Shown: positions 7,524 to 28,697 of the stretch, one piece after another
Layout of the letters: each line of letters starts with the position of its first letter
Position numbering within the stretch: the stretch's first letter is position 1
Translations under genes and position numbers: made by a program
Notes under the pieces: generated by a model
Told to the model about the DNA's origin: nothing
The model's input: only the letters and a program-made list of their open reading frames with translations
Database searches by the model: none
Source: an uncultured Magnetovibrio sp.
GTDB taxonomy: Bacteria > Pseudomonadota > Alphaproteobacteria > Rhodospirillales > Magnetovibrionaceae
Assembly (NCBI GenBank): GCA_964451415.1
Contig: CAYVHU010000014.1
Span: forward strand, 6,521-70,520
DNA: 64,000 nucleotides
Direction: 5' to 3'

Positions 7524-7540
7524 GTAAGGACAATTTTTTA

Positions 7541-8707: not shown

Positions 8708-8729
8708 AAAGTTAGAAGGATTTTAGATT

Positions 8730-9899: not shown

Positions 9900-10654
9900 G
9901 CCTGCCCGTAAAACTTCTGGCGATCGTTCCTGCGCGCGGTGGCTCCAAGGGCATTACGGGCAAAAATCTTGCCCGGGTGGGCGGGCGTTCACTGGTCGTG
10001 CGCGCGTTGGATGCTGCAAGGCGGGCAAAGGCTGTGAGTGACGTTTTTGTCACCACTGACGACGATGCCATCGCCCTTGAGTGTGAAAGGGCGGGCGTGT
10101 CGGTTGGGTATCGTCGACCGGCGCATCTGGCGGGTGACGAGACGGGCATGATGGAGGTGGTTCTGGACGCGCTCGATCATTATAAGGGCGAGCATGGTCA
10201 GGATCCCGAGGTCATCGTATTGTTGCAGCCGACCTGTCCGTTTCGCTGTGCAGAGGATGTTGACGGGGCGTGGGGTGTGCTGTGTGACGGCGGTTTCGAG
10301 ACCGTGGTCTCGGTTCATGAAATGCGCGAAAGTCCGTACGAGTGCCTACGTGAAAATGCCGAAGGCTACCGCATGTTGGCCCAATCCGCTGGTGCGGTGC
10401 GTCGTCAGGACTATCAAGAAGACTTTTATTTTATCAACGGGGCCGTTTATATGGCGCGTAGCGAGTATGTGCGCCGTGAAAAGGTTTTGTTCAAGGAAGG
10501 CGAAAGCGGTCTGTTTCATATGGATCCGCTGTACGGTATCGACATTGACCAGCCCGGGGATTTGCTTATGGCCCAGGCATTGGCCAATCATCCTGAGTTT
10601 ATAGACCGACTTTATCCCGAGGATCCTCATGCCCATCTCACCGACGTATCTTAA
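9896..10654 (+). CDS. acylneuraminate cytidylyltransferase family (CMP-NulO synthetase, NeuA/LegF-like)
   Basis: 'LLAIVPARGGSKGITGKNLARVGGRSLV', 'LLQPTCPFR' and 'RRQDYQEDFYFINGAVYM' are CTP_transf_3 hallmarks. Confidence 0.8.
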   Translation: MSLPVKLLAIVPARGGSKGITGKNLARVGGRSLVVRALDAARRAKAVSDVFVTTDDDAIALECERAGVSVGYRRPAHLAGDETGMMEVVLDALDHYKGEHGQDPEVIVLLQPTCPFRCAEDVDGAWGVLCDGGFETVVSVHEMRESPYECLRENAEGYRMLAQSAGAVRRQDYQEDFYFINGAVYMARSEYVRREKVLFKEGESGLFHMDPLYGIDIDQPGDLLMAQALANHPEFIDRLYPEDPHAHLTDVS

Positions 10655-11777
10655 AAAACTTCAATATCGCGTTTTTGATGCCACCGACGCCGAAGTGCCG
10701 GACGATTTCCGCAAACGCATGTACGCAGAAGGCGAACGCGTGGCGCGCGAAGTTCTCGAACCCAAGGGCCTTGAAGATCGCAAGGTGCTCATTATCGGCG
10801 GGGCCGGTTATATCGGCGTGCCGCTGACCACCCATCTTCTGGCGCGCGGTTATGGGGTGCGCTGTCTGGATTTGTTTTTGTTTGAAAACCGCGACGTGGT
10901 GCATCCGTTTCTGGGCGAAGAAGGCTACGAGTTCATGTTCGGCGACATGGCCGACAAGGATACCGTGGCGCGCGCGCTGGACGGCGTCACCGATGTGATC
11001 TTGCTGGCCGGTCTGGTGGGGGATCCGATCACCAAGAAGTACCCCGACGAAAGCGCCGCCATCAATGATCGCGGGGTCCTCAACGTGATCGAACAGTGCA
11101 ATGGCAAAGGCCTCAACAAGGTCGTGTTCGTGTCCACGTGTTCCAACTACGGTGAAATTCCGCCCGACACCACGGCGGACGAAAACTATGAACTCAAACC
11201 GCTGTCCTTGTATGCCAAGTCCAAGGTCGCTGCGGAAAAAGCAATGCTGAGCAACAAGGGCAACGTCGATTACGTTGGCAGTGTGATGCGCTTTTCCACA
11301 GCCTTCGGCCTGAGTGGTCGCATGCGCTTCGACTTGACGGTGAGCGAATTCACCCGCGAGCTGTTCGTCGGCAACAAGCTGGAAGTCTACGATGCCGACA
11401 CGTGGCGGCCATATTGTCACATGCAGGATTTTGCGCGCGGCCTGACCCGTCTTTTGGAAGCGCCCGCCGATGAGGTGGCGTTCGAAGTGTTCAATGCCGG
11501 CGGCGACGTCAACAACTATACCAAGGGCATGATGGTCGAGGCCATCTTGAAACAAATTCCCGACGGCGACGTGAGCTACGTCAAAGGCGGGTTTGATCGG
11601 CGCAATTACAAGGTCGATTTCTCGCGTATTCGCGAACGTCTGCATTTCACGCCGAAATACACGGTGGACGACGGTATTCGCGAGTTGATCTCTGTAATGA
11701 AGCAGGGCTTCTTCCTCGATTACGACCAGCGTCTCAATTATTATCGCAACAACGAAATCACATATCGCGTCAAATGA
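10629..11777 (+). CDS. NAD-dependent sugar-nucleotide epimerase/dehydratase (extended SDR)
   Basis: 'KVLIIGGAGYIGVPLTTHLLARGYGV' (GxxGxxG) and 'YAKSK' (YxxxK). 382 aa. Confidence 0.8.
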   Translation: MPISPTYLKKLQYRVFDATDAEVPDDFRKRMYAEGERVAREVLEPKGLEDRKVLIIGGAGYIGVPLTTHLLARGYGVRCLDLFLFENRDVVHPFLGEEGYEFMFGDMADKDTVARALDGVTDVILLAGLVGDPITKKYPDESAAINDRGVLNVIEQCNGKGLNKVVFVSTCSNYGEIPPDTTADENYELKPLSLYAKSKVAAEKAMLSNKGNVDYVGSVMRFSTAFGLSGRMRFDLTVSEFTRELFVGNKLEVYDADTWRPYCHMQDFARGLTRLLEAPADEVAFEVFNAGGDVNNYTKGMMVEAILKQIPDGDVSYVKGGFDRRNYKVDFSRIRERLHFTPKYTVDDGIRELISVMKQGFFLDYDQRLNYYRNNEITYRVK

Positions 11778-12946
11778 GCCTTGAACCCGACGATATTCTG
11801 AACGCCGTCAGCGGCGTTCTGGGACCGGCAGAAAGCTTTACACCGCTGCATGAGCCGGAATTTTCCGGCAACGAGTGGACCTATGTGAAGGACTGCATCG
11901 ACACCGGGTGGGTGTCGTCGGTGGGCGCGTATGTGGAGCGGATCGAGAAAGATCTGGCGGCTTACACCGGTGCAAAATTCGCGGTGGCCATGGTCAACGG
12001 CACGGCGGCGCTGCATATGGCGCTGATCGTGGCGGGGGTCGAGGCCGGTGACGAGGTCATCGCGCCGACCTTGAGTTTCGTCGCCACAGCCAACGCCATT
12101 GCGTACTGTCACGCCACGGCCCACTTCGTCGATATCGAGGAAGCCACCTTGGGCCTGGATGCCGTCAAACTGGATGCCTACCTGGGTGAAATCGCGCACA
12201 GGACGGATGCGGGTGTGGTCAATAAGCTCACCGGTCAGCGCATTGCCTGCGTGGTTTGCATGCACACCTTCGGTCATCCGGTGGACGTGGATGCGCTGCT
12301 TGACGTGTGTGATCGCTGGGGACTGACGCTGGTCGAAGATGCAGCGGAATCGTTGGGGTCACGCTACAAGGACAGGCATTGCGGCACGTTCGGCCACGTT
12401 GCGGCAATCAGCTTCAACGGCAACAAGATCGTGACCACCGGCGGCGGCGGTGCGTTGCTCACCAGTGACGAAGATCTGGCCCGGCGCGCCAAGCACCTCA
12501 GCACAACGGCCAAAACGCCGCATCCGTGGCTCTATGTTCACGATCAAGTGGGCTACAACTACCGTATGCCCAATATCAATGCGGCGCTTGGCTGTGCTCA
12601 ACTGGAACAATTGGATGGTTTTCTGGCGCAAAAACGTGAGCTGACCCGCAGCTACACCAGGGCGTTTGCGGGTCTGGACGGTGTGCGTGTGTTTGGCGAG
12701 GCCGATTTCGCCACCTCGAACTTTTGGCTCAACGCCATCATTCTGGATGATAAAAAACTGCGCGATCCGGTGCTGAAAATCCTTAACGCGGCAAACTACA
12801 TGGCGCGTCCGGCATGGACGCTCCTACACAAACTGCCGCCCTATGCGGGTGCGCCGCGCATGAGCGATCTGAGCGTGGCCGAACGTATCGAGGGGACGTT
12901 GATCAATATTCCCAGTTCTCCCAAGTTGGCGCGAAAGCGGACATAA
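11774..12946 (+). CDS. DegT-family aminotransferase, LegC-like
   Basis: 'VNGTAALHMALIVAGVEAGDEVI', 'VEDAAESLGS' and 'ISFNGNKIVTTGGGGALL'. Confidence 0.8.
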   Translation: MSLEPDDILNAVSGVLGPAESFTPLHEPEFSGNEWTYVKDCIDTGWVSSVGAYVERIEKDLAAYTGAKFAVAMVNGTAALHMALIVAGVEAGDEVIAPTLSFVATANAIAYCHATAHFVDIEEATLGLDAVKLDAYLGEIAHRTDAGVVNKLTGQRIACVVCMHTFGHPVDVDALLDVCDRWGLTLVEDAAESLGSRYKDRHCGTFGHVAAISFNGNKIVTTGGGGALLTSDEDLARRAKHLSTTAKTPHPWLYVHDQVGYNYRMPNINAALGCAQLEQLDGFLAQKRELTRSYTRAFAGLDGVRVFGEADFATSNFWLNAIILDDKKLRDPVLKILNAANYMARPAWTLLHKLPPYAGAPRMSDLSVAERIEGTLINIPSSPKLARKRT

Positions 12947-12951
12947 GAGCC

Positions 12952-14115
12952 ATGCGCAAGATTTGCGTTTTTACCGGTACGCGCGCGGAATACGGTCTGT
13001 TGTACTGGACCATGCGACAGGTTCAAGACGATCTGGATTTGCAGTTGCAAATTCTGGTCAGCGGGGCGCACCTGTCGGAACGTCTGGGCGCGACCTACCG
13101 GCAGATCGAGGCCGACGGTTTTGTTGTTGATGCCAAAGTGCCGATGAATTTGGAAGACGACAGCGACGCCGCCCTTGCCGTTGCCATGGGACAGGAACTT
13201 GCGGGTGTGGCGCGGGTTCTGGATGAATTGAAGCCCGATATCCTGGTGCTTTTGGGGGATCGCTACGAAACGTTTACGGCGGCAACGGCAGCCATGATGC
13301 TGCGCATTCCCATTGCGCATATTCATGGTGGTGAAGTGACCGAGGGGGCCCTGGATGATGCCATGCGTCACGGCATCACCAAGATGGCGCATCTGCATTT
13401 TACGGCGGCTGAGCCCTATCGCCAACGGGTCATCCAGCTTGGTGAAAACCCGGATCGTGTATTTAACGTTGGCGCACCGGGGCTGGAAGCCATTACCCGC
13501 ACGCCACTCATGAACCGGGAAGATCTGGCGCAAGATTTGGGGTTTTTCCTGGATGGCAGCGTGTTTGTGGTGACTTATCACCCCGAAACTCTGGGTAAAG
13601 TGGACGCGTCGAGCGGCATTGAAGACCTGTTGCAGGCCCTGAACCTGTTTCCTGAAGCGCGGATCATCCTTACCAAGGCGAACGCGGACAGCCAGGGGCG
13701 TGTCGTTAATGACCGGTTGGAGACCTACGCCGAACGCAACAAGGATCGTGTTTTCCTTAGCGCCTCCCTGGGCCAGCGCCGCTATTATTCTGCCGTTGCT
13801 CTGGCGGATGTGGTGATCGGCAATTCGTCCAGCGGCATTATCGAGGCGCCAGCACTGGGGACGCCTAGCGTCAACATCGGCGATCGGCAGAAGGGGCGCT
13901 TGCGCGCCGCATCGGTTGTGGATTGCGCCGAAAGCGCCAGTGCCATTGCAACCGCCATCGACGAAGCGTTGCACCGGGATCACCAAATTTCGGTCAATCC
14001 CTACGGCACAGGCGAGACGTCCAGCAAAATCATCACGGTGCTCAAGGCGTTTTTAAGGGCGCCGAGCGTGTCAAAAACATTCTTCGATCAGTCTGCGTAT
14101 CCATCAAAATCTTGA
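12952..14115 (+). CDS. hydrolysing UDP/GDP-N-acetylhexosamine 2-epimerase (NeuC/LegG family)
   Basis: 'MRKICVFTGTRAEYGLLYW', 'LGDRYETFTAATAAMMLRIPIAHIHGGE' and 'GNSSSGIIEAPALGTPSVNIGDRQKGR'. ATG 12952 lies 6 nt after the upstream stop. The track's longer start (12814) overlaps the previous gene. Confidence 0.85.
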   Translation: MRKICVFTGTRAEYGLLYWTMRQVQDDLDLQLQILVSGAHLSERLGATYRQIEADGFVVDAKVPMNLEDDSDAALAVAMGQELAGVARVLDELKPDILVLLGDRYETFTAATAAMMLRIPIAHIHGGEVTEGALDDAMRHGITKMAHLHFTAAEPYRQRVIQLGENPDRVFNVGAPGLEAITRTPLMNREDLAQDLGFFLDGSVFVVTYHPETLGKVDASSGIEDLLQALNLFPEARIILTKANADSQGRVVNDRLETYAERNKDRVFLSASLGQRRYYSAVALADVVIGNSSSGIIEAPALGTPSVNIGDRQKGRLRAASVVDCAESASAIATAIDEALHRDHQISVNPYGTGETSSKIITVLKAFLRAPSVSKTFFDQSAYPSKS

Positions 14116-14201: not shown

Positions 14202-15476
14202 ATGCATAAACGTTATTTTATTTTACATGGGAATATATTCTCCCAGCGTGATTGGGAACGTTTCGGGTGTGATTTCTTCCTTCAGCGCGGTTATGACGTT
14301 ATCCCCGTGGAACTGGTCGAGTTGCTGAGTCCCGGAACGTATTCTCAAATGACGAAAGGTACGTTCACGTCTAGGCAAAATGTTGTGCGCATCAATACCG
14401 AACAGGAAATGGATGAACTGGTGACGCATTTCGGCCCTGCGGACTTTGTACTTATGGCCTTTTACCTTAATGCGAAATCGGCCTTCGTGTTTCGAATTCT
14501 CACAAAATATAAGATTGACTATATGTCTTTGACCATCGGAGGAATTCCGACGAATGACTTCCGGAACTTTCGTAGTGCGCTCAACTTGAAAGAGTACCTT
14601 AAGTTTAAATATATGACGGTGAAGACGAAGGCATATTTGCTTAAACGGTATGTTTGGACGATGTTTGCTGATGGCGTGGGGTGGGTGTTTTTGCGCCCGC
14701 CACGTTGGTGGATGCGTGCGGGACGTTATCATAACGCGCTCAGCGCTGTTGCGCCCAAGCCTTGGAAGGCCGAGCTTATCTCCGTTCGTTCATTTGACAT
14801 GCAAGTGATTGATGCCGTTCAAAATCAAAATAAAAAAGAAGGCGAAATCTTCGAGAAGCCATATGCTGTTTTAATTGATGATGATTTTTTAGATCATCCG
14901 GATTTTATATATATGGGCATAAACCGTCCTGTGACAAAAGAACGGTTTAGCTGCGCCATGCAGTCGTTTATTGCAAAACTTGAAAAGGATCTAAGGCTGC
15001 GCGTTGTTGTCGCCGGGCACCCCAAGGCCTTGCCTGAAAATGCGTCCATTGTTTATGGGGCGTACCCGTTCATTCAAGATAGGACGGCAGAACTTGTCGC
15101 ACACAGCGAACTGGTCGTTGTGTGTTGCAGTACGGCGCTTTCGTTTGCCGTTCGTTTGCGTAAACCTGTGATTGTCATCACGACCGACGAAATCGAACGA
15201 AATAGATTTTACGGTGGTTTCGTTGCTAACATGTCGAGCTGGTTAGGTTTGCGTCGTACGAATATTGATCGTCTAAAAGCGCATGATTCGTTGGTGATGC
15301 CCGTGGTTGATCAGCGCTGCTACGAGAGCTATGAACAAAATTTTTTGGCGGAGAAGGGGGTTGGTTCGCATTCAATCTGGGAAGAAGCCGCACGCCATTT
15401 TGAGGCGCATATTTCAAAACGTGCATCGGACTCCATAAAAAGACGTAAAAATCCGGAGCTTAAAATTGAGAAATAA
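14202..15476 (+). CDS. hypothetical protein, possibly a GT-B-like glycosyl/NulO or polyol-phosphate transferase
   Basis: 424-aa ORF at the start of a visibly AT-richer block. C-terminal half 'RVVVAGHPKALP...TAELVAHSELVVVCCSTALSFAVRLRKPVIVI' resembles the HP-motif / nucleotide-sugar-binding half of GT-B enzymes. There is no closer match I can assert. Confidence 0.45.
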   Translation: MHKRYFILHGNIFSQRDWERFGCDFFLQRGYDVIPVELVELLSPGTYSQMTKGTFTSRQNVVRINTEQEMDELVTHFGPADFVLMAFYLNAKSAFVFRILTKYKIDYMSLTIGGIPTNDFRNFRSALNLKEYLKFKYMTVKTKAYLLKRYVWTMFADGVGWVFLRPPRWWMRAGRYHNALSAVAPKPWKAELISVRSFDMQVIDAVQNQNKKEGEIFEKPYAVLIDDDFLDHPDFIYMGINRPVTKERFSCAMQSFIAKLEKDLRLRVVVAGHPKALPENASIVYGAYPFIQDRTAELVAHSELVVVCCSTALSFAVRLRKPVIVITTDEIERNRFYGGFVANMSSWLGLRRTNIDRLKAHDSLVMPVVDQRCYESYEQNFLAEKGVGSHSIWEEAARHFEAHISKRASDSIKRRKNPELKIEK

Positions 15477-16443
15477 TCCCTTTCAATCTATCTATGACGC
15501 CTGCAATCAGGGCAATTCCATGGACAAGTTTAAAGAATTGCCGCCGTTTCCACGGCTTATTGATATTGAGGCGACCAATGCATGCAACTTCAGTTGTTTG
15601 ATGTGTCCGACCGGAAACCGTTCAATGACCCGAAAGACCGGTATGATGGAGCCGGCGGTTTTTGACAAGATTCTTGATGAATGCGCCCAGTGGAATTGTG
15701 CGTTGCGTTGGGTGCAATGGGGCGAAAACGTTATGCACCCGGACTTGCTTGATCATATTTCCGCAGCACATGAGCGAGGTGTTCTTACGCATTTGAACAC
15801 CAACGGCAGCAAGTTGGACGCAGAGGCAGTTGAACGTTTGATTTCGACGGGCCTTGATTCCATCAAATTTTCTTTCCAGGGTGTGGATCAAAACAGTTAC
15901 GCAGAGATGCGCAACAAGGACTTCTTTGAAGAATTGATGGCTGTTATCGAGCAGTTTCAGAAGATCCGAGGAGATCGGGAGGCTCCGTATATTCACATTT
16001 CAACCTCCATTACATACGAAGGCCCGGAACTTGTGGCGGCTTTTGAGAAACGGGCAAGACAGATTGCTGATTATGTGTCTGTAGGACGAACGGTTTTTGA
16101 TAACCTTAATCTTGATGGTGTGCGTATGAAGCCTGAGGAGGTTGCACGTCTGCAGCGTCTCAAAGAACAAGAATCTGTCGTCAAGGTTCACCCTGAATGC
16201 CCGAAGGTCTTTGACAAGATGTCCATCTTTTGGGATGGGGCGGTGTCGGCTTGTTGCGGCGATGCCGATAAGGTGATGCTTATTGGGTCCGTCTCTGATA
16301 ACACGCTTAAGGACATTTGGCATTCAAATAGAATGAACGAATATCGCACGATATTGGCGGATATGCGTCATAATGAACTTGATTTATGCCGCAATTGCTA
16401 TGATTACCAGGACTTGCAGAAAACCGGATCTCAGGAATTTTAG
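15466..16443 (+). CDS. radical SAM protein with a SPASM/twitch-like C-terminal Cys-rich domain
   Basis: 'IEATNACNFSCLMCP' (CxxxCxxC). C-terminal 'CPKVFDKMSIFWDGAVSACCGD...LDLCRNC'. Confidence 0.8.
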   Translation: MRNNPFQSIYDACNQGNSMDKFKELPPFPRLIDIEATNACNFSCLMCPTGNRSMTRKTGMMEPAVFDKILDECAQWNCALRWVQWGENVMHPDLLDHISAAHERGVLTHLNTNGSKLDAEAVERLISTGLDSIKFSFQGVDQNSYAEMRNKDFFEELMAVIEQFQKIRGDREAPYIHISTSITYEGPELVAAFEKRARQIADYVSVGRTVFDNLNLDGVRMKPEEVARLQRLKEQESVVKVHPECPKVFDKMSIFWDGAVSACCGDADKVMLIGSVSDNTLKDIWHSNRMNEYRTILADMRHNELDLCRNCYDYQDLQKTGSQEF

Positions 16444-16449
16444 TAAATT

Positions 16450-17124
16450 ATGCCCGATTACCTGAATGTCATTTATGACGAGAAATCACATCCGTTTACC
16501 GACTATCCCTCACGGCTTGCCGCATATCTCTATCAAGCATTCAAGCTGAATGAACGAGATACAATGCTTGAGTTGGGAAGCGGTCGTGGCGAGATGTTGA
16601 AGTGCTTTTCCGATCTCGGGATGACGGTTAAAGGCGTTGACTTGTCCCAAGAGGCGCAAGTTTTATCACCTGGGCTGGAAATGTCGAGTTGCGATTTGGA
16701 AACGGAAAAACTTCCCTTTCCGGATAGCTGTTTTGATGTTGTCTTTAATAAATCTGTTCTTGAACATATTCGGAATACGGATCATCTTATCCGTGAAATA
16801 CGACGCGTTCTAAAACCGGGCGGGTTAATCCTGTGCATGGTTCCAGACTGGGAATCGAATTATAAAATTTTCTTTGATGACTATACCCATAAATCGCCGT
16901 TTACGACCGTGTCGCTTAATGATTTATTGCGTATCCATGATTTTGTAGATGTCCGTGTTTACAAATTCAGGCAATTGCCCATCGTTTGGCGGCATCCTTG
17001 GCTGAATTTTGTTTGCGCGTTGATGAGTCCATTTGTGCCGATCAGAACCAATATCGGGTTTTTGCGATGGTCGCGCGAATTGATGATTGTTGCGTGTGGT
17101 ACCCAGCGAGAATCTGAACAATGA
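16450..17124 (+). CDS. class I SAM-dependent methyltransferase
   Basis: 'MLELGSGRGEMLKCFSDLGMTVKGVDLS' (motif I, post-I acidic residue), 'FDVVFNKSVLEHI' and 'LKPGGLIL'. Confidence 0.8.
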   Translation: MPDYLNVIYDEKSHPFTDYPSRLAAYLYQAFKLNERDTMLELGSGRGEMLKCFSDLGMTVKGVDLSQEAQVLSPGLEMSSCDLETEKLPFPDSCFDVVFNKSVLEHIRNTDHLIREIRRVLKPGGLILCMVPDWESNYKIFFDDYTHKSPFTTVSLNDLLRIHDFVDVRVYKFRQLPIVWRHPWLNFVCALMSPFVPIRTNIGFLRWSRELMIVACGTQRESEQ

Positions 17125-19281
17125 GTAAGAACAGACCTGTAAAAATTTTTCTCGGTGATCTTGTGCACACGTGGGAAAAAGCCAGTACCTGGACCTTTCC
17201 ACTGAATATCGGTTTTATTAGCGCATACGCCAGCAAGATCTTGGGCGATGACGTCGAGTTTCGTCTGTTCAAACGTCCCGAAAAAATGATCGAAGCGCTT
17301 CGCAACGATCCCCCCGATGTGGTTGGCTTTTCCTATTATGTGTGGAATGCGAACCTGAACGGCCTTTTGTGCAAGATCGCAAAGGATGCCAATCCCCATG
17401 TGCTTAGCGTCGGTGGGGGGCCGAATTTCACCTCCATCAACACCACCGAAGAGAAGGCGGCCCAAGTCTTCCAGAACCAGCCTCAACTGGATGCGTATGT
17501 GGTAAACCAAGGTGAGCGCGGTTTTGTCGAACTGATGCGAGCATTTTTGGGTGCGCGGCGAGACGTTGTCAAGTTGCGTACTTTGACGGTTGATGGATGC
17601 GTTATCAATGGTGACGTGACGGTGGGGCGCATACAAATCGGCCCGCCCCTGGACGCAATGCGCGATTTGGAAGAGGTGCCATCGCCGTACCTGAGCGGTA
17701 TTTTGGATGAGTTCTTTGACGAACCCTTTGCCCCGATTTTGGAAACCAATCGCTCATGCCCATACCGCTGTACCTTTTGCGCGTGGGGGATTGGAACTGC
17801 GAAAATGGCGCGCTTTAGCGTAGAACGCGTGGTTGAGGAAATTGACTACATTGGCCAGCGGTGCAAGAACGCGGCGCAAATGTTTATTGCAGATGCCAAT
17901 TTCGGCATGCTTAAACGCGACACCGATATCGCACGTAACCTGAATAATTCACACAAAAAATACGGCTTTCCTGGCCATTTGGCGGTGCAGTGGCACAAGT
18001 CACGCCCCGATCTGATTATTTCAGCAGCGCGCGAGGTCAAAGATATCGCGCGCATCGGTGCATCGATGCAGTCTTTGCACCCCGAAACCCTGGAGGCCGT
18101 GAAGCGCAAAAACCTGCCGTTGGAACAGGTCAAGGATATGCTTGAAGAGTTGAGTGCCGACGGCGAGGAAATGCCACTGGTCTCAGAGCTGATTCTAGGG
18201 TTGCCCCTGGAAACACGGGAGTCGCATCTGGAAGCCAACCGCACCATGATCAACGCGGGTGCAGAGATGATCAATTATAATCTCTACCTTCTTCCGGGTA
18301 CAGAAATGGATAGCCAGGAAAGTCGCAAAAAGTATTTCAAGGAAACGGGCTGGCGGTTGATGGACAACGCGTTCGGCGTCTATGACGGGGTCAGGGTGTT
18401 TGAGGGCCAGGAAACGGTACAGGCAACCTCGACCATGTCACGTGACGAGTTGCGGGGCTTTCGCTTTTATCATTTCCTTCTGCAGTTCATGTGGGGGGGG
18501 GCGCTGGTACTATGACTACATCAATCTGTTTCACGGGTTGGGCACCCATCCTGTCGACCTGCTTGATCGGATCAGCCGGACTTTTCCGCGTGATGACAGT
18601 TCGTTGGGCCGGTTGTATCAGGACTTCAAGGCCGACCACGAACTGGAAACGTTCAAGACTTACGAAGACATGTGTGGATATTGGACTGAGGATGAAGCCC
18701 TGGAACGTTTGCGTACCGGCGGTTATGGTAAGCTGAACTTTGCCTATACATATAAAGTACTGTTGGAATGTCGTTCCGAATTCGACCAGTTTTTGTTGCA
18801 AACGGCGGAATGCATGATCAAAGAAAACGTGCCGGATGATGCGGTTCGGATTATGGATGTTACGCGCGACATTTTGAGTTTCGGTGCAGCATTACAGGTG
18901 AAACTCAACGAAGATATGTCTCTGGTTCCGGTCAACTGGGGCGATTTTGGTTATGATATCTTAAGGTGGCGCAATAACGATTATCAAGGCTTGCCCGCGC
19001 CCTGCGAAGGCAATGCAGTGCACTACAAATTCAGCGTGCCCGACGCACAGCACGAAAAACTGACGCGCCTGTTGTCTCAATACAAATCGCATAACAAAAA
19101 TTTGACGTTGCGCAAGATGAGCGAGTACATCAAGCCGCATGAATTTTTCTATACTGTTGAACCCGTGGATGAACTTTTCAATGACGCCAAGAATGAAAAA
19201 ATACCGATGGTGCCACAGTCGGGAACTCATGACAGTTGGTCTTATCTTAAGGGGCGTCAGTCTGGTGATGACCAACGCTAA
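17121..19281 (+). pseudogene. B12-binding-domain radical SAM enzyme, split by a +1 frameshift at a G9 tract (track ORFs 17121..18515 and 18382..19281)
   Basis: N-terminal cobalamin-binding-like domain ('DVVGFSYYVWNANLN...SVGGGPNF') and radical SAM core 'ILETNRSCPYRCTFCAWG'. Frame A ends 'FMWGGALVL*' at 18515. Frame B continues '..GGGRWYYDYINLFHGLG...' to 19281. Removing one G gives a single 719-aa ORF. Confidence 0.65.
18493..18501 (+). repeat. G9 homopolymer at the frameshift point of the B12-radical SAM gene
   Basis: catgtGGGGGGGGGcgctgg. The reading frames switch exactly here. Confidence 0.9.
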
Positions 19282-19486
19282 CGACCACCATATGACACTC
19301 TGATGCCGGGGGGCAGGGGCCGTCCACACCATCACCTCATCGAAGATGGTTTGCGGCGCGGGTCTCGGCTTTTCTGCAAGTGCGCGTTGATATATAATGG
19401 ATGGATGTGGATGCAATGCCAGTTCCTGGTAATAAATACAAATTCATGGTGAATAGTACCGACCATCTTGCAGGTATTCAGGTCGT

Positions 19487-20641
19487 TTGATGAGAATACT
19501 GATGGCCGACGCAAAGAATAGTGACTTTCGAGAGCTGATTTCGCCTTTTCTTCGTGGAAAAATTGCAGATTTGGAAGAAAAGTACGGCTCCGACAGCCTT
19601 GAGTTGCGAGCCATTACAAGACAGTACCTGCGCGATCCTTTGGAAAATATCATTCACTCCAGGGAACGACGTCGGCATTACGAATCCGAGGTTCATCTCA
19701 TGTTTGACGGCGAGCCCGTCGTTGGGGTTGAACGCTTGTACAGGCGAACCGTATTGATCGAACCCACTACGGTGTGTGCGGCGCATTGCCGATGGTGCTT
19801 GCGTGGTCAGTATCCCGTGAAAACCATGAGTAATGAACAAATTGTGCACGCGACACGCTACATTGGTTCCAACGATTTGCGCGACGATATTGATGAGGTG
19901 CTGATTACAGGTGGGGATCCGTTAATGTCACAGCCCATGCTGGCGTTGACGTTGAGTGAATTGCGCCGCAATGCGCCAAACGTGCGTACGGTACGTATCG
20001 GCAGCCGACTGATTTTTCAGGAACCGAAAAAAATAAATGCGGATATGATGGATATTTTTGGCCGGTATCCAGACTTCAAGTTCGAAGTTGGCGTGAACGT
20101 CAACCATCCCATCGAGTTTTGGCCGGAGTGTATCGATGCGGTTCATCGTCTGCAAGACGGGGGCTTTCGGATTTACAACCAGCATCCGCTTTTGCGTGGT
20201 GTAAACGATGATCTCGAAACCTTGATCGAATTGTACGATGCGATGCGCCACAATGGGATCGAAGCTCATTACCTGTTCCATGCCATACCCTTGCGTGGTA
20301 TGAGCCATCACCGCACGTCCTTGCGCCGCGGTGCGAAGTTGGCGGGACTGCTGTGTAGCAACGGCCACTTCTCGGGTCGGGTCAAACCGCGGTATGCGGT
20401 GTTGAGCGATATTGGCAAGATCGTAATATACGAAGGTACGATCGTTGATCGTTGCCGTTCCGACAATACGGTGCTGTTGCAGTCTGGGTATCGGTTGGAA
20501 GAGCGTCAACGCTGGGTGCCGTCGTGGCAGATGCCCGATAGCGTCGTGCTCGACAATGACGGCTACATGCGTACGCGCTACCAAGACGGAACCGACGAAG
20601 ATGAAACTGAGAGCGCCGTTCCCCTTTCATACAGCGCCTGA
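19487..20641 (+). CDS. KamA-family (lysine 2,3-aminomutase-like) radical SAM/PLP aminomutase
   Basis: 'LIEPTTVCAAHCRWCLRGQY' (KamA-type CxxxCxxC), 'EVLITGGDPLM', 'YNQHPLLRGVNDD' and 'HYLFHAIPLRG'. 384 aa. Confidence 0.8.
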   Translation: MMRILMADAKNSDFRELISPFLRGKIADLEEKYGSDSLELRAITRQYLRDPLENIIHSRERRRHYESEVHLMFDGEPVVGVERLYRRTVLIEPTTVCAAHCRWCLRGQYPVKTMSNEQIVHATRYIGSNDLRDDIDEVLITGGDPLMSQPMLALTLSELRRNAPNVRTVRIGSRLIFQEPKKINADMMDIFGRYPDFKFEVGVNVNHPIEFWPECIDAVHRLQDGGFRIYNQHPLLRGVNDDLETLIELYDAMRHNGIEAHYLFHAIPLRGMSHHRTSLRRGAKLAGLLCSNGHFSGRVKPRYAVLSDIGKIVIYEGTIVDRCRSDNTVLLQSGYRLEERQRWVPSWQMPDSVVLDNDGYMRTRYQDGTDEDETESAVPLSYSA

Positions 20642-20695: not shown

Positions 20696-21694
20696 ATGGG
20701 CTCACTTGATGGCCGTAAGGTTCTTTTAACAGGTGGCACGGGTTCATTTGGCAAGGCCTTTGTGAAGAAGCTCTTGCAAGAGCACGACGTGAAAAGGTTG
20801 GTTGTGTATTCGCGCGATGAACTCAAGCAATTCGATATGGCACAGGATATTGACGCGCCGAACTTGCGTTATTTTATTGGCGACGTCAGGGATGGAAATC
20901 GTTTGGAACGGGCGTTTGACGGCATTGATACCGTCATCCACGCTGCTGCGTTGAAGCAGGTGGTCACGGCTGAGTACAATCCCATCGAATGCATCATGAC
21001 CAACATCCTGGGTGCTGAAAACGTAATTAACGCCGCGATCAACAAAGGGGTCAGGCATGTGATTGCCCTGTCTACGGACAAGGCTGTTAATCCGCTTAAT
21101 CTTTATGGTGCAACCAAGTTGTGTTCCGACAAACTTTTCGTTGCCGCCAACAACATGTCGGGCAAGAGTGGATGCAAGTTTTCGGTCGTGCGTTACGGCA
21201 ACGTTATCGCATCGCGCGGCAGTGTTGTGCCGGTGTTTCGCAAGCAAAAACAGACGGGAACGTTAACCATAACCGACCCGCGCATGACGCGTTTCTGGCT
21301 GACTTTGGAACAGGGTACAGATTTTGTCATCAAGTGTCTGCGGTTGATGCGTGGGGGAGAAGTTTTCATTCCAAAAATTCCGTCCATGCGTATTGCTGAT
21401 TTGGCGACGGCTATGGCGCCGCAGTGCAAGCAAAAAGTTATCGGCATTCGCCCCGGTGAGAAACTGCATGAAGTGTTAATCCCCGCCGATGAGGCGGGTT
21501 ACACGCTTGAATTCAAGGATTATTATATTATCAATCCCAGTATCCATATGTGGGAAGAAAATCGCACCCGGGTCTACGGTGGTGAAGACGGGCACGCGGT
21601 TTCCGAAAATTTTGAATATTCCAGTGACGCCAACACCCAGTGGATTAGCGGCCAGGAATTGGCCGATATGATTGAGGGTGAGGTTGAAACTTGA
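20696..21694 (+). CDS. pseB: UDP-N-acetylglucosamine 4,6-dehydratase (inverting), PseB/FlaA1 type
   Basis: 'KVLLTGGTGSFGKAFVKKLL', 'VIHAAALKQVVTAEYNPIECIMTNILGAENVINAAI', 'STDKAVNPLNLYGATKL' and 'VVRYGNVIASRGSVVP'. Confidence 0.88.
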   Translation: MGSLDGRKVLLTGGTGSFGKAFVKKLLQEHDVKRLVVYSRDELKQFDMAQDIDAPNLRYFIGDVRDGNRLERAFDGIDTVIHAAALKQVVTAEYNPIECIMTNILGAENVINAAINKGVRHVIALSTDKAVNPLNLYGATKLCSDKLFVAANNMSGKSGCKFSVVRYGNVIASRGSVVPVFRKQKQTGTLTITDPRMTRFWLTLEQGTDFVIKCLRLMRGGEVFIPKIPSMRIADLATAMAPQCKQKVIGIRPGEKLHEVLIPADEAGYTLEFKDYYIINPSIHMWEENRTRVYGGEDGHAVSENFEYSSDANTQWISGQELADMIEGEVET

Positions 21695-22890
21695 ACCCTC
21701 GTTTTTTGGGCTATGGTTCGCAGAGTCTTGATGAACGGGACATAGAGGCCGTCGTTGAGGTTCTGAAAAGCGATTTTTTGACGCAGGGACCGGCGGTTGC
21801 GCGTTTCGAAGCGGCATTGGCCGAACGCGTTGGCGCAAAATACGCGGTCGCGGTATCGAGTGGAACGGCGGCTCTGCACCTTGCGTGTCTGGCGTCGGGG
21901 ATGAAACCCGGCGATGTCGGCGTAACGTCGGCGTTGACGTTTGTCGCTTCGGCCAATGCGTTTCTCTATGCGCAGGGACGGGCGCTGCTGAGTGATATTG
22001 ATGCGCAAACCTTGTGCATGTCCAAAGATACCCTGGCCCGGGCTTTGACCGGAGAGTCGCCGTTGAAGGCCGTCACGCCCGTTCACTTTGCAGGATTGAG
22101 TGTAGGACTGTCCGCTATTCGCAAGCATGTTGGCAATGATGTTTCTATTATTGAAGATGCCTGTCACGCCCTGGGGGGGGACGATGAAGACGGCCTGCCT
22201 GTGGGGTGTTGCGCGCATTCCAATATGACCGTGTTTTCGTTTCATCCCGTCAAACCAATTACGACGGGCGAGGGCGGGGCAATCACGACCAACGACCCGT
22301 ATCTTCGCGATTTATTGCAACGGTTGCGTAGCCACGGTATCGAAAAAGAGCCTGAGCTGCTGCAATTGCGTGATCAGGGTGTTGATGAGGATTCCGGGGC
22401 CGTTTTTCCGTGGTACTACGAACAACAGATGCTGGGGTACAATTACCGCATGAGCGATATCCATGCCGCTCTGGGGCTGTCGCAGTTGGCGAAACTGGAC
22501 GGCTTTATCGCCCGTCGCCGCGAAATTGCCTTGTTTTACGACCGGAAGGTGTCCCGGCTTGCCCATGTGCGTGGCGTGCATAGCGCGCCGGAAATGCGCA
22601 AACGTTCCGGCCTGCACCTTTACGTTATTCGTTGTAATTACAAAGCCTTGGGCAAAACCCGTGAACGGGTCATGACGGAATTGAAGACACGCGGTATCGG
22701 CAGCCAGGTCCACTATATTCCGCTTTACCGCCAGCCTTTCCATATGAAGAGGGAAAAATGGTGTTCCGGGGACTTTCCCATATGCGAAGGCTACTACGCG
22801 GAGGCGCTCAGCATTCCTTTGTTTGCGTCCATGAGGGATGAGGATGTTGAGCGCGTAAGCCAGGCTCTTGATGAAGTCCTCACGTCTTGA
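21691..22890 (+). CDS. pseC: UDP-4-amino-4,6-dideoxy-N-acetyl-beta-L-altrosamine transaminase, PseC type
   Basis: 'YGSQSLDERDIEAVVEVLKSDFLTQGP', 'EDACHALGG' and 'FSFHPVKPITTGEGGAITTND'. Follows pseB with an overlapping junction. Confidence 0.82.
   Translation: MNPRFLGYGSQSLDERDIEAVVEVLKSDFLTQGPAVARFEAALAERVGAKYAVAVSSGTAALHLACLASGMKPGDVGVTSALTFVASANAFLYAQGRALLSDIDAQTLCMSKDTLARALTGESPLKAVTPVHFAGLSVGLSAIRKHVGNDVSIIEDACHALGGDDEDGLPVGCCAHSNMTVFSFHPVKPITTGEGGAITTNDPYLRDLLQRLRSHGIEKEPELLQLRDQGVDEDSGAVFPWYYEQQMLGYNYRMSDIHAALGLSQLAKLDGFIARRREIALFYDRKVSRLAHVRGVHSAPEMRKRSGLHLYVIRCNYKALGKTRERVMTELKTRGIGSQVHYIPLYRQPFHMKREKWCSGDFPICEGYYAEALSIPLFASMRDEDVERVSQALDEVLTS
22173..22180 (+). repeat. G8 homopolymer inside pseC (in frame)
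   Basis: gccctGGGGGGGGacgat encodes 'ALGGDD'. Confidence 0.9.
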
Positions 22891-22939
22891 ACAGTAAGTC
22901 CCATGTCGCCAAGCCGCTCTGTCAGGTGCAACAAATCCC

Positions 22940-24745
22940 ATGAATTTCATGCATGAAGCCCTCAATTATATTCGCGAGGAAGCGAAATTATTCGCGTTGT
23001 TCCTCGGCTTGTCGCTCTTTCTGGCTCTCAGCGAGGGCTTGAGCGTTTCCCTGCTCATTCCCATCCTCGGGGCAGGTGGTGGCGGGGATACATTGTCGTC
23101 ATTGCCGGTTATCGGGCATTTTTTCAGGCCTTTGATGCAAATGAACGTTTCGCAGCGCATTTTGACGGTATCGGTCTTGTTATCCGCAGTGCTTGTTGTC
23201 CGTGGAGGATTGCAGTATGCAACCCAAATCCTTAGTGCCACATTGCCCTTGCGGATTCAGCGCAGAATCATGACGCAGGTGTTCGATCTTTTGATGCATG
23301 TGCAGTTGAATTATTTGCATGGGAAAAAAATCGGTGAACTCAAAACCTTGATTCAGGAACATCCCGTTCGCGTGGCTACGGCTTTGAGGAGTATCGCGGA
23401 TATCGTTTCAAGCTTCATTTTAATTTTTATTTACATGCTGTTGATGATTGCCATTTCCTGGCAGATTACCATCGTGACGATAGGGTTTGTCGGGGTTCTG
23501 CTGCTGATTTTGCGCTGGATCAGTGCGCGGCGTCTTGTTTTTGCTGGAACCCAGTTGTCAAAGACCATGGACAGGATGCATGAGGTCTTTTTTGGGGCGA
23601 TTCAGGGGGTGAAGCTGGTGCGTCTGGCCAATGCCGAAACGCGGATGAGCGATGAGTTCACGACGGCTGTAAATAATTTTTACGCCGTGGATTTAAAGCG
23701 ATACCAGATCGGTGAATTGCAATCTCCACTGTTTATGACCCTGGCCGGGCTGTTTGTCTGTGCGATTTTGATATTCGGTGCCTTAACGCAAAGTGGTAGC
23801 GCTTGGGTAGTCTTGGCCTTGATGTTTATCATCAGCTTGTATCGGATGCTTGGTCCCGCCAGCCGGATCGTCACCGCGCAGGTGTCGATTCACGCCAACA
23901 AGGATTCGTTCCAAAGATTGAAAAGTTTGTTTGCCGAGGCGACGGCAATGCGCCAGAAAAACGGCACGATCCGGGCAAGCGGATTGAACACGGGCATTTG
24001 TTTTGAGGACGTTACCTTTTCGTATCCGGCAACGGATGTTCCCGCCGTCCGCAATCTTTCCTTGATTATACCAGTGGGTAAAATGGTTGCGTTGGTGGGG
24101 CCATCTGGCAGCGGCAAAAGTACCATAGTCGGATTGGTGGCGCGTTTGTTCGATCCTCAAAAAGGACGTATTATGATTGATGGCGAGGATCTCAAAGATC
24201 TTGAAATCGGATCCTGGCGCCGGCGCATCGGGACGGTGACGCAAGAAACCTTCCTGTTCAACGACACCATATACAATAACATTTCGTTCGGACGCGACGA
24301 TGTGCCTCTGTCCGAAGTGCGTATGGCGGCGAAGTGGGCGGCGGCCGACACTTTTATCGAAGTCCTTCCCGATGGGTATGAAACGCGGGTTGGTGAGCGT
24401 GGCGCACGCCTTTCAGGCGGCCAGGCCCAGCGCCTGGCTCTGGCGCGCGCCATTATCAACAATCCGGACTTTCTGATTCTGGATGAGGCCACCAGTCATC
24501 TGGATAGCCTGAATGAACAGGTGATTCAAAAAACAATACAAGCCATGCATGGCAAAAAAACAATCCTTGTTGTCGCGCATCGCCTATCAACCATCAGAAA
24601 TGCCGACATGATTGCCGTCGTGAAAAACGGCACTATCGTGGAAACGGGCGTACATGAGGACTTGATGCAAAAACCTAGTGTTTACAAACGTCTGTTCGAA
24701 ACCCAGAGTCTGGAACTGACCGATATCGACACGGCAACATCATGA
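22940..24745 (+). CDS. MsbA-like ABC exporter (fused permease + ATPase)
   Basis: Six-TM N-terminal half. 'LVGPSGSGKST' (Walker A), 'LSGGQAQRLALARA' (signature) and 'FLILDEATSHLD' (Walker B). Confidence 0.88.
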   Translation: MNFMHEALNYIREEAKLFALFLGLSLFLALSEGLSVSLLIPILGAGGGGDTLSSLPVIGHFFRPLMQMNVSQRILTVSVLLSAVLVVRGGLQYATQILSATLPLRIQRRIMTQVFDLLMHVQLNYLHGKKIGELKTLIQEHPVRVATALRSIADIVSSFILIFIYMLLMIAISWQITIVTIGFVGVLLLILRWISARRLVFAGTQLSKTMDRMHEVFFGAIQGVKLVRLANAETRMSDEFTTAVNNFYAVDLKRYQIGELQSPLFMTLAGLFVCAILIFGALTQSGSAWVVLALMFIISLYRMLGPASRIVTAQVSIHANKDSFQRLKSLFAEATAMRQKNGTIRASGLNTGICFEDVTFSYPATDVPAVRNLSLIIPVGKMVALVGPSGSGKSTIVGLVARLFDPQKGRIMIDGEDLKDLEIGSWRRRIGTVTQETFLFNDTIYNNISFGRDDVPLSEVRMAAKWAAADTFIEVLPDGYETRVGERGARLSGGQAQRLALARAIINNPDFLILDEATSHLDSLNEQVIQKTIQAMHGKKTILVVAHRLSTIRNADMIAVVKNGTIVETGVHEDLMQKPSVYKRLFETQSLELTDIDTATS

Positions 24746-25815
24746 CAAACGACTTCCCTCTTAACGTTTTGCTGGTTACCTTTCAAACGGGGTGCGCAAA
24801 TTCGATTGTTTTGATCGCCAAGGCGCTACGCCAGCGCGGCGCACGCATCCATGGCGTATGCGCGGGGGCTTGCGTTCGCGTGTTTGAAAGAGAAGCCGTT
24901 TCCCATCAGGTTCTGGACGTCAATGTGTCCGATGCGCAAATTGATGCGCTCCTCGATGCACAGGCGCCGGATCTGGTGATCACGGGTTCAAACGCCGCCA
25001 ATCGTTTTGAATTCAATTTTCGCCTAAGGGCGCGTCAGCGCGGCGTACAGGTGATAACGACCTTGGACTATTGGAGCGCCTACCAGGGACGTTTCCACGA
25101 TAACGAAACCGGTGTGACGTCGCTTCCGGATAAACTTCTGGTCACCGACGCGGTAATGCGCGATGAGTTGCGCAAGGCCGGTTTCAAGGATGCGCGGATC
25201 GAGATTGTCGGAAATCCGTATTTTGAACATTTGGCCCTTGAGGCGTCGGCGACAAGAAATCCGCGAATACGTGCGTACAAACGGATTTTGTTTACGTCCC
25301 AGCCAATCGCTGCTCTGTTTGGGACATCTTCGAAAAATCCTCGCTTTCTCGGCTACGAAGAAGGTGGCGTTTTTGACGCCCTGGTTGACGACCTCAAGGC
25401 CCGGCCCGAGTGCCGTCTATACGTCAAACCGCATCCCAGAGAAGATCTTACGGTGTGGAGGGGACGTTTGAAAAAAGCGAAAGCGGTAGAGAAACAGATT
25501 TTCTTCATTGGGGGGCGTGGTCGCTCCCTGGGCCTGTTGCAAGCGGCCGATGTCGTGGTTGGGATGACCAGCAATATGTTGCTGGAAGCACTCGTTGTCG
25601 GCACGGCGGCGGTATCGTTCCAACCCGACACGAACGGCAAATTTGAATTTTATGGGACTTCGTCGGGACTGGTACCGACGGCGCGCAAGATCGACAGGTT
25701 GCCCCCCTTGATTGATGAGGCCCTGACACGCAGCGCGACGACGGTACGCGAAAAGGTTGGTGTTTTATATAAAGGCGCCCTTGCGCGCTGCATTGACGTC
25801 ATAACGGCGAAATAA
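24742..25815 (+). CDS. hypothetical GT-B-like protein (candidate glycosyl/NulO transferase). Its 3' end is duplicated as a decayed remnant at 29969..30200.
   Basis: 'RILFTSQP...', 'LYVKPHPRED' and 'LLQAADVVVGMTSNMLLEALVVGTAAVSFQP' resemble the C-terminal half of GT-B transferases. 357 aa. Confidence 0.5.
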   Translation: MTNDFPLNVLLVTFQTGCANSIVLIAKALRQRGARIHGVCAGACVRVFEREAVSHQVLDVNVSDAQIDALLDAQAPDLVITGSNAANRFEFNFRLRARQRGVQVITTLDYWSAYQGRFHDNETGVTSLPDKLLVTDAVMRDELRKAGFKDARIEIVGNPYFEHLALEASATRNPRIRAYKRILFTSQPIAALFGTSSKNPRFLGYEEGGVFDALVDDLKARPECRLYVKPHPREDLTVWRGRLKKAKAVEKQIFFIGGRGRSLGLLQAADVVVGMTSNMLLEALVVGTAAVSFQPDTNGKFEFYGTSSGLVPTARKIDRLPPLIDEALTRSATTVREKVGVLYKGALARCIDVITAK

Positions 25816-25828
25816 CGAATAGCACGGG

Positions 25829-26620: not shown

Positions 26621-26639
26621 GTTGAGCGGGTATCATCGC

Positions 26640-26666
26640 CTGTAAGCGGATTGCCGGGGCTTACAG
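26640..26666 (+). other. stem-loop CTGTAAGC-N11-GCTTACAG just downstream of cytidylyltransferase copy 1 (conserved in copy 2)
   Basis: 8-bp perfect inverted repeat with no trailing T-run. The identical structure occurs at 31032..31058. Confidence 0.4.
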
Positions 26667-26917
26667 TTATGGCTGTCAGGAACATGGGGAACACGTCATG
26701 CGCTCTCGCCGATGAGGCCGAAGACGTTCAGTCAACGGCTGGAATGTATCGGCGTCAACGCCCGTCAGGGTGCGATATTGTCGTTTGGGAATAAGCCACT
26801 CGCTGTTACTTTAGCATCGGAAGGGCCTCCTGCGCCCTTCCTCCGTTGAATCACGGATCAGTTAACAAAGATTCACCAGACTTTTGCAACAGGTCTAATA
26901 ATTGGAAGTTTTTCGCT

Positions 26918-28695: not shown

Positions 28696-28697
28696 CA

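Follow-up and report, generated by a model that had tools for sequence, protein, structure and literature searches.

What do the genes between a legionaminic-type cluster and pseB contribute to the nonulosonic acids (NulOs) of an uncultured Magnetovibrio sp.? The block in question lies on the plus strand at positions 14202–20641 of a 64,000-nt stretch of DNA (the whole stretch that was analysed, hereafter the window). An earlier note, made from the sequence, had described it as an AT-richer, tightly packed module of five genes that builds or attaches a novel substituent on a NulO. The order, identities and coordinates of the five genes were all borne out by the list of open reading frames (ORFs) and by searches with Pfam and NCBIfam models. 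They encode a protein with a GT-B fold, a twitch-type radical S-adenosylmethionine (SAM) enzyme, a class I methyltransferase, a cobalamin (B12)-dependent radical SAM enzyme and a KamA-like aminomutase, which we refer to below as the GT-B, twitch, methyltransferase, B12 and KamA genes. The block is probably a mosaic of accessory genes for the tailoring and transfer of NulOs, mainly of the legionaminic type, and not a stand-alone pathway. This reading builds on established gene identities, folds and conserved motifs and on a NulO context that recurs in other genomes. Of the proposal in the earlier note, the tailoring of NulOs is therefore retained on the basis of context, but the single module is not, and it is doubtful that the system functions in this genome.

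All five families adjoin NulO biosynthesis genes in unrelated genomes and metagenomes. The twitch, B12, methyltransferase and GT-B genes recur as a quartet, in shuffled order, at or inside clusters for legionaminic acid (Leg) or pseudaminic acid (Pse) in at least three other lineages. In L058 and L059 the order is Leg genes, twitch, B12, GT-B, methyltransferase and PseB, and in L060 it is Leg genes, twitch, B12, methyltransferase, GT-B and PseB. In a metagenome-assembled genome (MAG) of the Hyphomicrobiales (L005/L006), twitch, B12 and GT-B lie within the Leg operon and the methyltransferase gene follows after it. A trio of B12, twitch and methyltransferase genes was found in Desulfovibrio and Desulfocurvus. 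The conserved gene content despite the shuffled order argues for a functional linkage. Identities between the window and L058 are 88% for LegB, 84% for the nucleoside triphosphate (NTP) transferase, 80% for the B12 enzyme and 73% for the twitch enzyme, but only 35% for the GT-B protein and 30% for the methyltransferase. A far stronger divergence of the latter two than of the biosynthetic enzymes (73–88%) is the pattern expected if a transferase (and its partner) follow a changing acceptor. The idea of one five-gene module had to be given up, since the quartet recurs without KamA, which was present at none of 80 twitch loci and belongs to a separate ligase–KamA cassette.

The distribution of the B12 and twitch families was examined more widely. 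A motif-based scan with one genome per species found B12 orthologues (41–59% identity) in 18 genomes, with hosts in Paramagnetospirillum, Magnetospirillum, Rhodospirillales, Magnetococcales, Desulfovibrionales and Pelagibacteraceae and in a Falkowbacteria MAG. NulO pathway genes were present at all ten B12 loci with full 10-kb flanks, for example in the order LegB-LegC-B12-NeuC-NeuB in L011. A metagenome scan returned the 80 loci with twitch orthologues, 26 of which are at least 10 kb long; 24 of these 26 contain NulO genes. The usual order at twitch loci is NTP-transferase, cytidine monophosphate (CMP)-transferase, twitch, WbuX, HisF and, further on, LegC, NeuC and NeuB. At the 26 long loci, B12 and methyltransferase genes each occur three times and GT-B genes twice. 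As a separate observation, the loci L010, L011, L012, L017, L018 and L019, which come from Rhodospirillales, Pelagibacteraceae and a Deltaproteobacteria MAG, carry besides the B12 orthologue another B12-binding radical SAM gene, of 567 aa. A Maf-type (MptE-like, PF01973) gene also occurs at L010, L011 and L017, which points to flagellin glycosylation islands.

The B12 protein contains the Pfam domain Radical_SAM and a B12-binding domain (PF02310; E 1.8e-7) that with 31.5 bits scores just below the cut-off of 32.1 bits; a precomputed PF02310 match is present in most of its homologues. The cluster motif SCPYRCTFC (CxxxCxxC) is present in the window protein and does not vary among 13 orthologues. 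Of the NCBIfam models, that of the KedN5 family fits best (E 1.2e-58); for it the window fragment reaches 198.8 bits and the intact orthologue P0010 reaches 188.4 bits, both below the 700-bit cut-off. Judged by these scores, the protein appears to be a relative of the KedN5 family and not a member of it. The closest solved structures by sequence are TokK (E 2.9e-45) and CysS (E 1.2e-33). An AlphaFold2 model of P0010 (pLDDT 83.9) matches both over all three domains, with TM-scores of 0.68–0.74 to TokK and 0.65–0.76 to CysS; TsrM, the next structural match, reaches 0.39–0.53. Like TokK/ThnK (carbapenem side chain) and CysS (cystobactamid), the B12 enzyme combines a B12 Rossmann domain, a radical SAM barrel and a C-terminal helical domain. 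Its context, however, is a NulO sugar cluster without an adjacent carrier protein and not a polyketide, non-ribosomal peptide synthetase (NRPS) or beta-lactam cluster. Both TokK and CysS methylate unactivated sp3 carbons in an iterative manner. The comparison with GenK and Fom3 made in the earlier note is reasonable with respect to C-methylation chemistry, but TokK and CysS are closer, and GenK and Fom3 were absent from the sequence matches. By analogy, the most likely role of the B12 enzyme would be C-methylation, perhaps in repeated rounds, with an unactivated sp3 carbon in a Leg intermediate or in its N-acyl group as the target. The family comprises more than 570 homologue clusters.

In the window this gene is not intact. 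Its identification as a B12-binding radical SAM gene holds, but the ORF that had been taken for the whole gene and the +1-frame ORF that follows are one gene, broken by a frameshift at a run of nine G (G9; Table 1). Deleting one G gives a protein of 719 aa that aligns over 94–99% with hundreds of intact homologues of 680–715 aa; the best of these is P0010, which is 80% identical. The repaired junction FMWGGRWYYDY fits the family consensus FMWGRRWYYDY. Close relatives encode the same junction peptide with G runs that are broken up (TGGGGCGGGCGC and similar), which suggests that in the window a synonymous change first produced a G8, to which one more G was then added. The region 3' of the shift is 74% identical to P0010 and has no further stop or other lesion, and the frameshift is therefore recent, reversible or an error. 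The same G9 is found in Logan assembly L001 (SRR6439370).

Other long G runs are present in the window, namely a G9 in frame within NeuB (5239–5247) and a G8 within PseC (22173–22180). Compared to composition-matched shuffles of the window, three G/C runs of at least 8 were observed where 4.1 are expected, and two of at least 9 where 1.3 are expected. Since such runs are not enriched, we rejected a designed phase-variable contingency locus.

The twitch protein scores above the Pfam cut-offs for both Radical_SAM (PF04055, 58 bits) and SPASM (PF13186, 51 bits), and its cluster motif is CNFSCLMC (CxxxCxxC). The TTG at 15466 is the true start of its gene, overlapping the upstream stop, and the resulting N-terminus agrees with that of the homologues. 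It had been described as a SPASM enzyme, and a Cys-rich auxiliary domain is indeed present, but the full seven-Cys, two-cluster motif is not. Five C-terminal Cys are conserved in the family (C227, C245, C246, C290 and C293 in alignment A5), which indicates one auxiliary cluster and thus a twitch-like rather than a full SPASM domain. The solved relatives are, in order, BtrN (E 2.6e-13), tetraether lipid synthase, DesII and BlsE, so that the analogy with BtrN drawn in the earlier note was a reasonable one. BtrN, the 2-deoxy-scyllo-inosamine dehydrogenase of butirosin biosynthesis, shares with the twitch enzyme the radical SAM core and a short C-terminal Cys-rich domain that potentially holds one auxiliary [4Fe-4S] cluster. 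Both enzymes stand in a context of amino-sugar biosynthesis, and DesII and BlsE are further radical SAM enzymes that act on sugars. In contrast to BtrN, which has four conserved C-terminal Cys and belongs to an aminoglycoside cluster, the twitch enzyme is about 60 residues longer, has five such Cys and occurs in NulO clusters. It would most likely abstract a hydrogen from a sugar carbon, leading either to a BtrN-like oxidation of a secondary alcohol or to epimerisation or dehydration.

The methyltransferase matches Pfam Methyltransf_11 (PF08241) with 70.2 bits against a cut-off of 21.2 bits, and it reaches no NCBIfam equivalog. Homologues with 30–39% identity lie alongside twitch and B12 genes in L005, L013, L014, L058 and L060. 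Its predicted contribution is an O- or N-methyl group.

The 424-aa protein encoded by the first gene has no match to any Pfam or NCBIfam family; no glycosyltransferase family was matched by 27 sampled relatives either, and a profile of the family found nothing among the sequences of the PDB. Its AlphaFold2 model (pLDDT 85.5, pTM 0.84) has the two Rossmann domains of the GT-B fold. Foldseek matched this model to GT-B glycosyltransferases, UDP-GlcNAc 2-epimerases, PseG and TagF, with a probability of 1.0 and TM-scores of 0.35–0.47. Homologues were located in NulO clusters in every case examined. The residues that are invariant in the close family include H232-P233-D234, P274, S310-T311 and K321-P322. 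H232-P233 and D226, which is part of a DD(D/G) stretch, are candidates for the HP and D/E-D/E-G motifs of sialyltransferases, but D226 lies only six residues upstream of HP, a spacing that we take to be unlike that of solved sialyltransferases. A word-indexed search had suggested a tiny family of 9 proteins. This was an artefact of low sensitivity, overturned by a full HMMER profile search that found 4275 representative clusters, for which there is no Pfam model.

Based on the structural model, the protein is most likely a candidate CMP-NulO transferase of a TagB/sialyltransferase-like kind, which would transfer a CMP-activated sugar to an acceptor. The NulO transferases Tanf_01245 and TFUB4_00887 of Tannerella forsythia (PMC5420450), TagB/TagF and bacterial sialyltransferases share with it a length of about 400–445 aa, a GT-B/TagB-like fold, an HP motif and a location in NulO clusters. 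It differs in having no match to Glyphos_transf or another Pfam family, and the likeness is one of length, fold, motif and location. The sole Pfam match among 27 distant relatives is that of P0341 (722 aa), in which a class I methyltransferase domain is fused to a GT-B-like domain; this methyltransferase domain is only 24% identical to the methyltransferase of the window and lends weak support.

The KamA-like protein matches the NCBIfam models of the KamA family with E 1e-32 to 1e-39, all below their cut-offs (125.9 bits for TIGR00238, where 199.2 bits are needed), and it aligns to the lysine 2,3-aminomutase structure 2A5H at E 9.8e-25. The CxxxCxxC motif and the carboxylate-binding Arg are shared with lysine 2,3-aminomutase KamA, EpmB, glutamate 2,3-aminomutase and the arginine 2,3-aminomutase BlsG. 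With respect to 2A5H, the carboxylate-binding Arg134 is kept as Arg106, but Asp293 and Asp330, to which the epsilon-ammonium group of lysine binds, are replaced by Ile267 and Leu306. In 20 members of the family I267, L306 and K311 are invariant, as are C97, C101 and C104 of the CxxxCxxC motif. K311 is part of a D-x-G-K motif just past the end of the HMMER alignment and is two residues off register from K337, the pyridoxal phosphate (PLP) lysine of lysine aminomutase. By these residues the protein does not appear to be a lysine aminomutase. The replacement of the lysine-binding Asp pair by Ile and Leu suggests that its substrate is a non-basic, probably hydrophobic or small, amino acid.

With more than 1100 homologue clusters, the KamA-like family forms a group distinct from lysine 2,3-aminomutase that in NulO clusters is linked with genes for a ligase, a carrier and an N-acyltransferase. 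The five other KamA-like loci examined all belong to NulO or amino-sugar clusters, and at each an AMP-binding ligase is adjacent. In three of the five (L056 and L057 among them) a PaaK-like ligase gene lies directly upstream of the KamA-like gene, and in two the order is KamA, Antibiotic_NAT, AMP-binding, a carrier-sized ORF of about 80 aa and DUF4910. L141 and L142 also encode a TokK-like paralogue of about 690 aa (31–36% identity), no more than 10 kb from the KamA, ligase and carrier genes. In the window, the search for a ligase, carrier protein or N-acyltransferase that could partner KamA found nothing intact, only the 3' stub of a ligase gene. A tblastn search with the L056 ligase matched residues 387–426 of 434 to this remnant (42.5% identity, E 4.8e-6), and residues 388–429 of 437 of the L057 ligase match it as well. 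The remnant looks like a recombination or deletion scar. An intact KamA cassette would presumably convert a non-basic amino acid into a beta-amino acid, which would serve, with the help of the ligase, to N-acylate an amino sugar. The ligase may have been lost in the joining of KamA to the 3' terminus of the B12 gene.

Here, with nine G, the B12 gene stands in the OFF frame, and deletion has left only a stub of the ligase that would partner KamA. The locus is thus partly decayed or at best switchable, and with both lesions present the proposed chemistry may not operate here.

This damage to two components, the B12 gene and the ligase, is one of several points that weigh against reading the block as a set of NulO tailoring and transfer genes. 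All five proteins miss the curated NCBIfam cut-offs for named functions and by sequence appear to be related to the named enzymes without belonging to their families; the roles, substrates, sites and reaction types proposed above are drawn from distant homology. The B12 enzyme is only 20–23% identical to TokK and CysS, which act on pantetheine-linked substrates and not on sugars, and B12-domain radical SAM enzymes also catalyse reactions other than methylation. The match between the twitch enzyme and BtrN, on which the proposed reaction is modelled, consists of two short stretches only. For the GT-B-fold protein, 2-epimerases and PseG rank level with glycosyltransferases in Foldseek, which does not separate these classes of function. 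Lastly, twitch and B12 orthologues are mostly found apart, so their cooperation is not required. The block could also be a decaying remnant, with a B12 pseudogene and a KamA orphaned by recombination, that adds little or nothing to the glycan in this organism. The +1 frameshift seen in two assemblies, the reduction of the ligase to a 48-codon stub with an internal stop, the lack of another ligase within the window and a GC-poor mosaic with a gene order unlike that of every relative all fit such a remnant. Yet the B12 sequence beyond the frameshift has stayed close to that of the intact orthologue without a second lesion, KamA retains every family-invariant residue, the GT-B, twitch and methyltransferase genes are intact, and a slip of a single G is reversible or possibly an assembly error. 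We consider decay somewhat unlikely. A homopolymer error in sequencing or assembly would mean that the B12 gene of the organism itself is intact (G8), which is compatible with one surplus base in a run of nine G in an otherwise undamaged gene. That the Logan assembly of SRR6439370 shares the G9 of the window speaks against it, although this assembly may derive from the same reads as the window and is weak as independent evidence. Such an error is possible, but it too falls short of being likely.

Other alternatives keep the genes functional but change what they do. The B12 enzyme might methylate an acyl unit tethered to a carrier or to CoA (acetyl to propionyl or isobutyryl, or a beta-aminoacyl unit) that then becomes the N-acyl group, instead of methylating the sugar backbone. 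TokK and CysS were solved with pantetheinylated substrates, and this is also in line with the paralogues of about 690 aa that L141 and L142 encode near KamA, a ligase and a carrier. It seems fairly unlikely, however, as neither a carrier protein nor a ligase is encoded beside the B12 gene in the Rhodospirillales, L005, L058 and L060 loci. The twitch enzyme could be a sugar epimerase in the manner of NeoN and HygY that makes 4-epi- or 8-epi-Leg without involvement of the B12 enzyme. The radical SAM enzymes that epimerise amino sugars have the same kind of auxiliary-cluster domain, 23 of the 26 long twitch loci are Leg clusters without a B12 gene, twitch orthologues are placed between the CMP-transferase and WbuX genes, and we know of no genetic basis for 4-epi-Leg. 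Among the solved structures the dehydrogenase BtrN is nevertheless the closest by sequence, in a comparison that included no epimerase, and we regard epimerisation as the sole role of the enzyme as distinctly unlikely. That the genes belong to a ribosomally synthesised and post-translationally modified peptide (RiPP), cofactor or lipid pathway and lie between two sugar clusters by chance is extremely improbable. The best NCBIfam matches of the twitch protein are maturase-type SPASM families, and some weak matches of the B12 protein are RiPP or hopanoid methylases. But these are all far below the cut-offs, as the twitch protein is for every NCBIfam equivalog, genes for a precursor peptide or cofactor are absent, and each family recurs within NulO clusters across phyla. 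We rejected the RiPP or cofactor explanation on this genomic context, and we prefer to see the block as accessory to NulO tailoring and transfer.

In aminoglycoside and nucleoside antibiotics, amino sugars are routinely tailored by radical SAM enzymes (BtrN, GenK, GenD1, DesII, BlsE), and the GenD2-GenS2-GenN-GenD1 logic of gentamicin combines a class I methyltransferase with a B12 radical SAM methylase, as the block does. To our knowledge, NulO tailoring has so far been limited to ordinary acyl, amidino, formyl and O/N-methyl chemistry. Full-text literature searches agree with the earlier statement that radical chemistry had not been described for the tailoring of Leg or Pse: no paper was found that connects radical SAM enzymes to Leg, Pse or NulOs in general, to the glycosylation of flagellin or to the names of NulO genes, and where aminomutases and NulOs were mentioned together the context was irrelevant. 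The NulO tailoring genes of Campylobacter (PtmG/PseA for acetamidino formation, PtmH for methylation) are likewise embedded among core NulO genes and act on nucleotide-activated intermediates, and the window contains the amidotransfer genes WbuX, HisH and HisF. This suggests that accessory tailoring genes in NulO clusters are already known and that the use of radical chemistry is the new part.

Pseudaminic and legionaminic acids decorate flagella, capsules, S-layers and lipopolysaccharide (LPS), and their side groups govern phage and immune recognition and surface charge. If radical SAM enzymes do act on these sugars, above all a TokK-like iterative C-methylase, this would add a class of modifications that standard annotation does not see (C-methyl or chain-extended backbones, keto or epi forms, beta-aminoacyl groups). 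It would also assign a function to large families for which there are no models (GT-B-like, B12 and KamA-like) and offer a specific candidate for the gene behind the C10 ulosonic acids, which are so far unexplained. The interest of these families is that they are widespread and un-annotated and that they make the C10 question testable. They are present in abundant environmental lineages, among them SAR11, Rhodospirillales, Desulfovibrionales and a bacterium from a candidate phylum (Ca. Falkowbacteria).

The C10 ('higher-carbon') acids were reported, by mass spectrometry, from Magnetospirillum gryphiswaldense, in which the backbone marker of the ulosonic acids is one CH2 heavier (m/z 311.10 vs 297.09; Kleikamp et al., PMC8157484; 10.64898/2026.04.20.719630) and the CMP-sugars at m/z 679.198, 693.214 and 707.230 are 14.016 Da apart (bioRxiv 10.64898/2026.04.20.719630). 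Neither study names a gene for C10 ulosonic acids, and neither refers to radical SAM enzymes or to cobalamin. Paramagnetospirillum kuznetsovii and an uncultured Magnetospirillum (L008, L015) have a B12 orthologue inside their Leg clusters, and Magnetospirillum sp. WYHS-4 has a paralogue in its NulO cluster (L141). A TokK-like C-methylase between LegC and NeuC in genomes related to the magnetospirilla is an obvious candidate for the formation of these acids. We therefore propose, very tentatively, that a TokK/CysS-like B12 enzyme might extend the carbon skeleton of Leg by C-methylation and so give rise to the C10 ulosonic acids of Magnetospirillum. M. gryphiswaldense was not among the matches of the motif-based genome scan, which also misses paralogues of the WYHS-4 type that lack the scanned motifs.

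Table 1. Positions in the window of the block genes, the lesions within the block and the two flanking NulO clusters.
Feature	Position	Strand	Remarks
GT-B-fold protein	14202..15476	+	424 aa; no Pfam/NCBIfam match; GT-B fold predicted by AlphaFold2
Twitch-type radical SAM enzyme	15466..16443	+	325 aa from TTG; Pfam Radical_SAM and SPASM
Class I SAM-dependent methyltransferase	16450..17124	+	224 aa; Pfam Methyltransf_11
Cobalamin-dependent radical SAM enzyme (B12), frameshifted	17121..19281	+	ORF 17121–18515 (464 aa) plus +1-frame ORF to 19281
G9 homopolymer causing the frameshift	18493..18501	+	G8 would restore the frame
PaaK-like AMP-binding ligase remnant, 3' end	19344..19484	+	found by tblastn; about 48 codons, in-frame stop
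KamA-family radical SAM/PLP aminomutase-like protein	19487..20641	+	start maybe ATG at 19490 or 19502
Legionaminic-type NulO cluster	4691..14115	+	NeuB, PglD/NeuD-like acetyltransferase, CBS-NTP transferase, Fe-dependent alcohol dehydrogenase, aminotransferase, cytidylyltransferase, LegB-like dehydratase, LegC, NeuC
Pseudaminic acid cluster	20696..35983	+	PseB, PseC, ABC exporter, GT4, cytidylyltransferase, WbuX, HisH, HisF/WbuZ, cytidylyltransferase, 639-aa protein without assignment, PseG-PseH fusion, PseI

The two clusters that enclose the block are well defined. NeuB, LegC and NeuC of the upstream cluster, of which NeuC is the last, all score above their curated cut-offs. The downstream pseudaminic set is complete, with PseB, PseC, PseG-PseH and PseI above their own cut-offs. 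The G+C content (GC) of the five block genes is, in order, 0.457, 0.468, 0.444, 0.509 and 0.521, compared to 0.592 for LegC, 0.572 for NeuC, 0.598 for the window flanks and 0.501 for PseB. The block had been described as AT-richer, which is true of its upstream edge, where GC drops sharply from 0.58 to 0.45 at about 14.0 kb. On the downstream side, however, there is no edge: the B12 and KamA genes have a GC like that of PseB, and the whole stretch from 14 to 44 kb lies below the window flanks. Tight packing holds for most of the block, but not for the 205-nt stretch at 19282–19486 that contains the ligase remnant. No promoter-like site was found on the plus strand in a scan of the block, and the terminator-like matches within it fall in coding sequence. 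Sequence identical to the window was found in the Logan assemblies of SRR6439370 and SRR6439372 and in GCA_006243245.1.

Several features of the wider window concern NulO or other sugar genes. Four CTP_transf_3 cytidylyltransferase genes start at 9896, 25829, 30221 and 38366, and their presence within 30 kb implies several distinct CMP-activated sugars. Within the Leg cluster, positions 7541–9899 encode an Fe-dependent alcohol dehydrogenase and an extra class I/DegT-type aminotransferase. Among the loci examined, this pair recurs only where the twitch/B12/methyltransferase/GT-B set is present (L005, L058, L060), and it may belong to the same extended pathway. Just 5' of NeuB, at 3476–4690, a MarR_EPS-type regulator (3476–4168) is followed by a NusG-like gene (PF02357, seen in the identical locus L002). 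The NulO cluster at L141 (Magnetospirillum sp. WYHS-4) likewise opens with a pair of a helix-turn-helix (HTH) regulator and NusG, and this points to antitermination by a dedicated system.

A second pair of radical SAM genes, encoding a B12-binding enzyme of 525 aa (42556–44133) and a radical SAM/SPASM enzyme of 381 aa (44152–45297), is only 22–24% identical to the pair in the block and is unrelated to it. It sits in a third sugar sub-cluster (36.4–47.8 kb) together with genes for a 2-hydroxyacid dehydrogenase, an epimerase, a cytidylyltransferase, a methyltransferase, an AP_endonuc_2 TIM barrel, a short-chain dehydrogenase/reductase (SDR), a haloacid dehalogenase-like (HAD) protein and a TIGR04326-like surface-carbohydrate protein. 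Further downstream, an AsnB-like amidotransferase is seemingly split into a GATase domain (55926–56603) and an Asn_synthase + Glycos_transf_1 fusion in an overlapping ORF (56576–57784), which may represent another frameshift or an unusual fusion.

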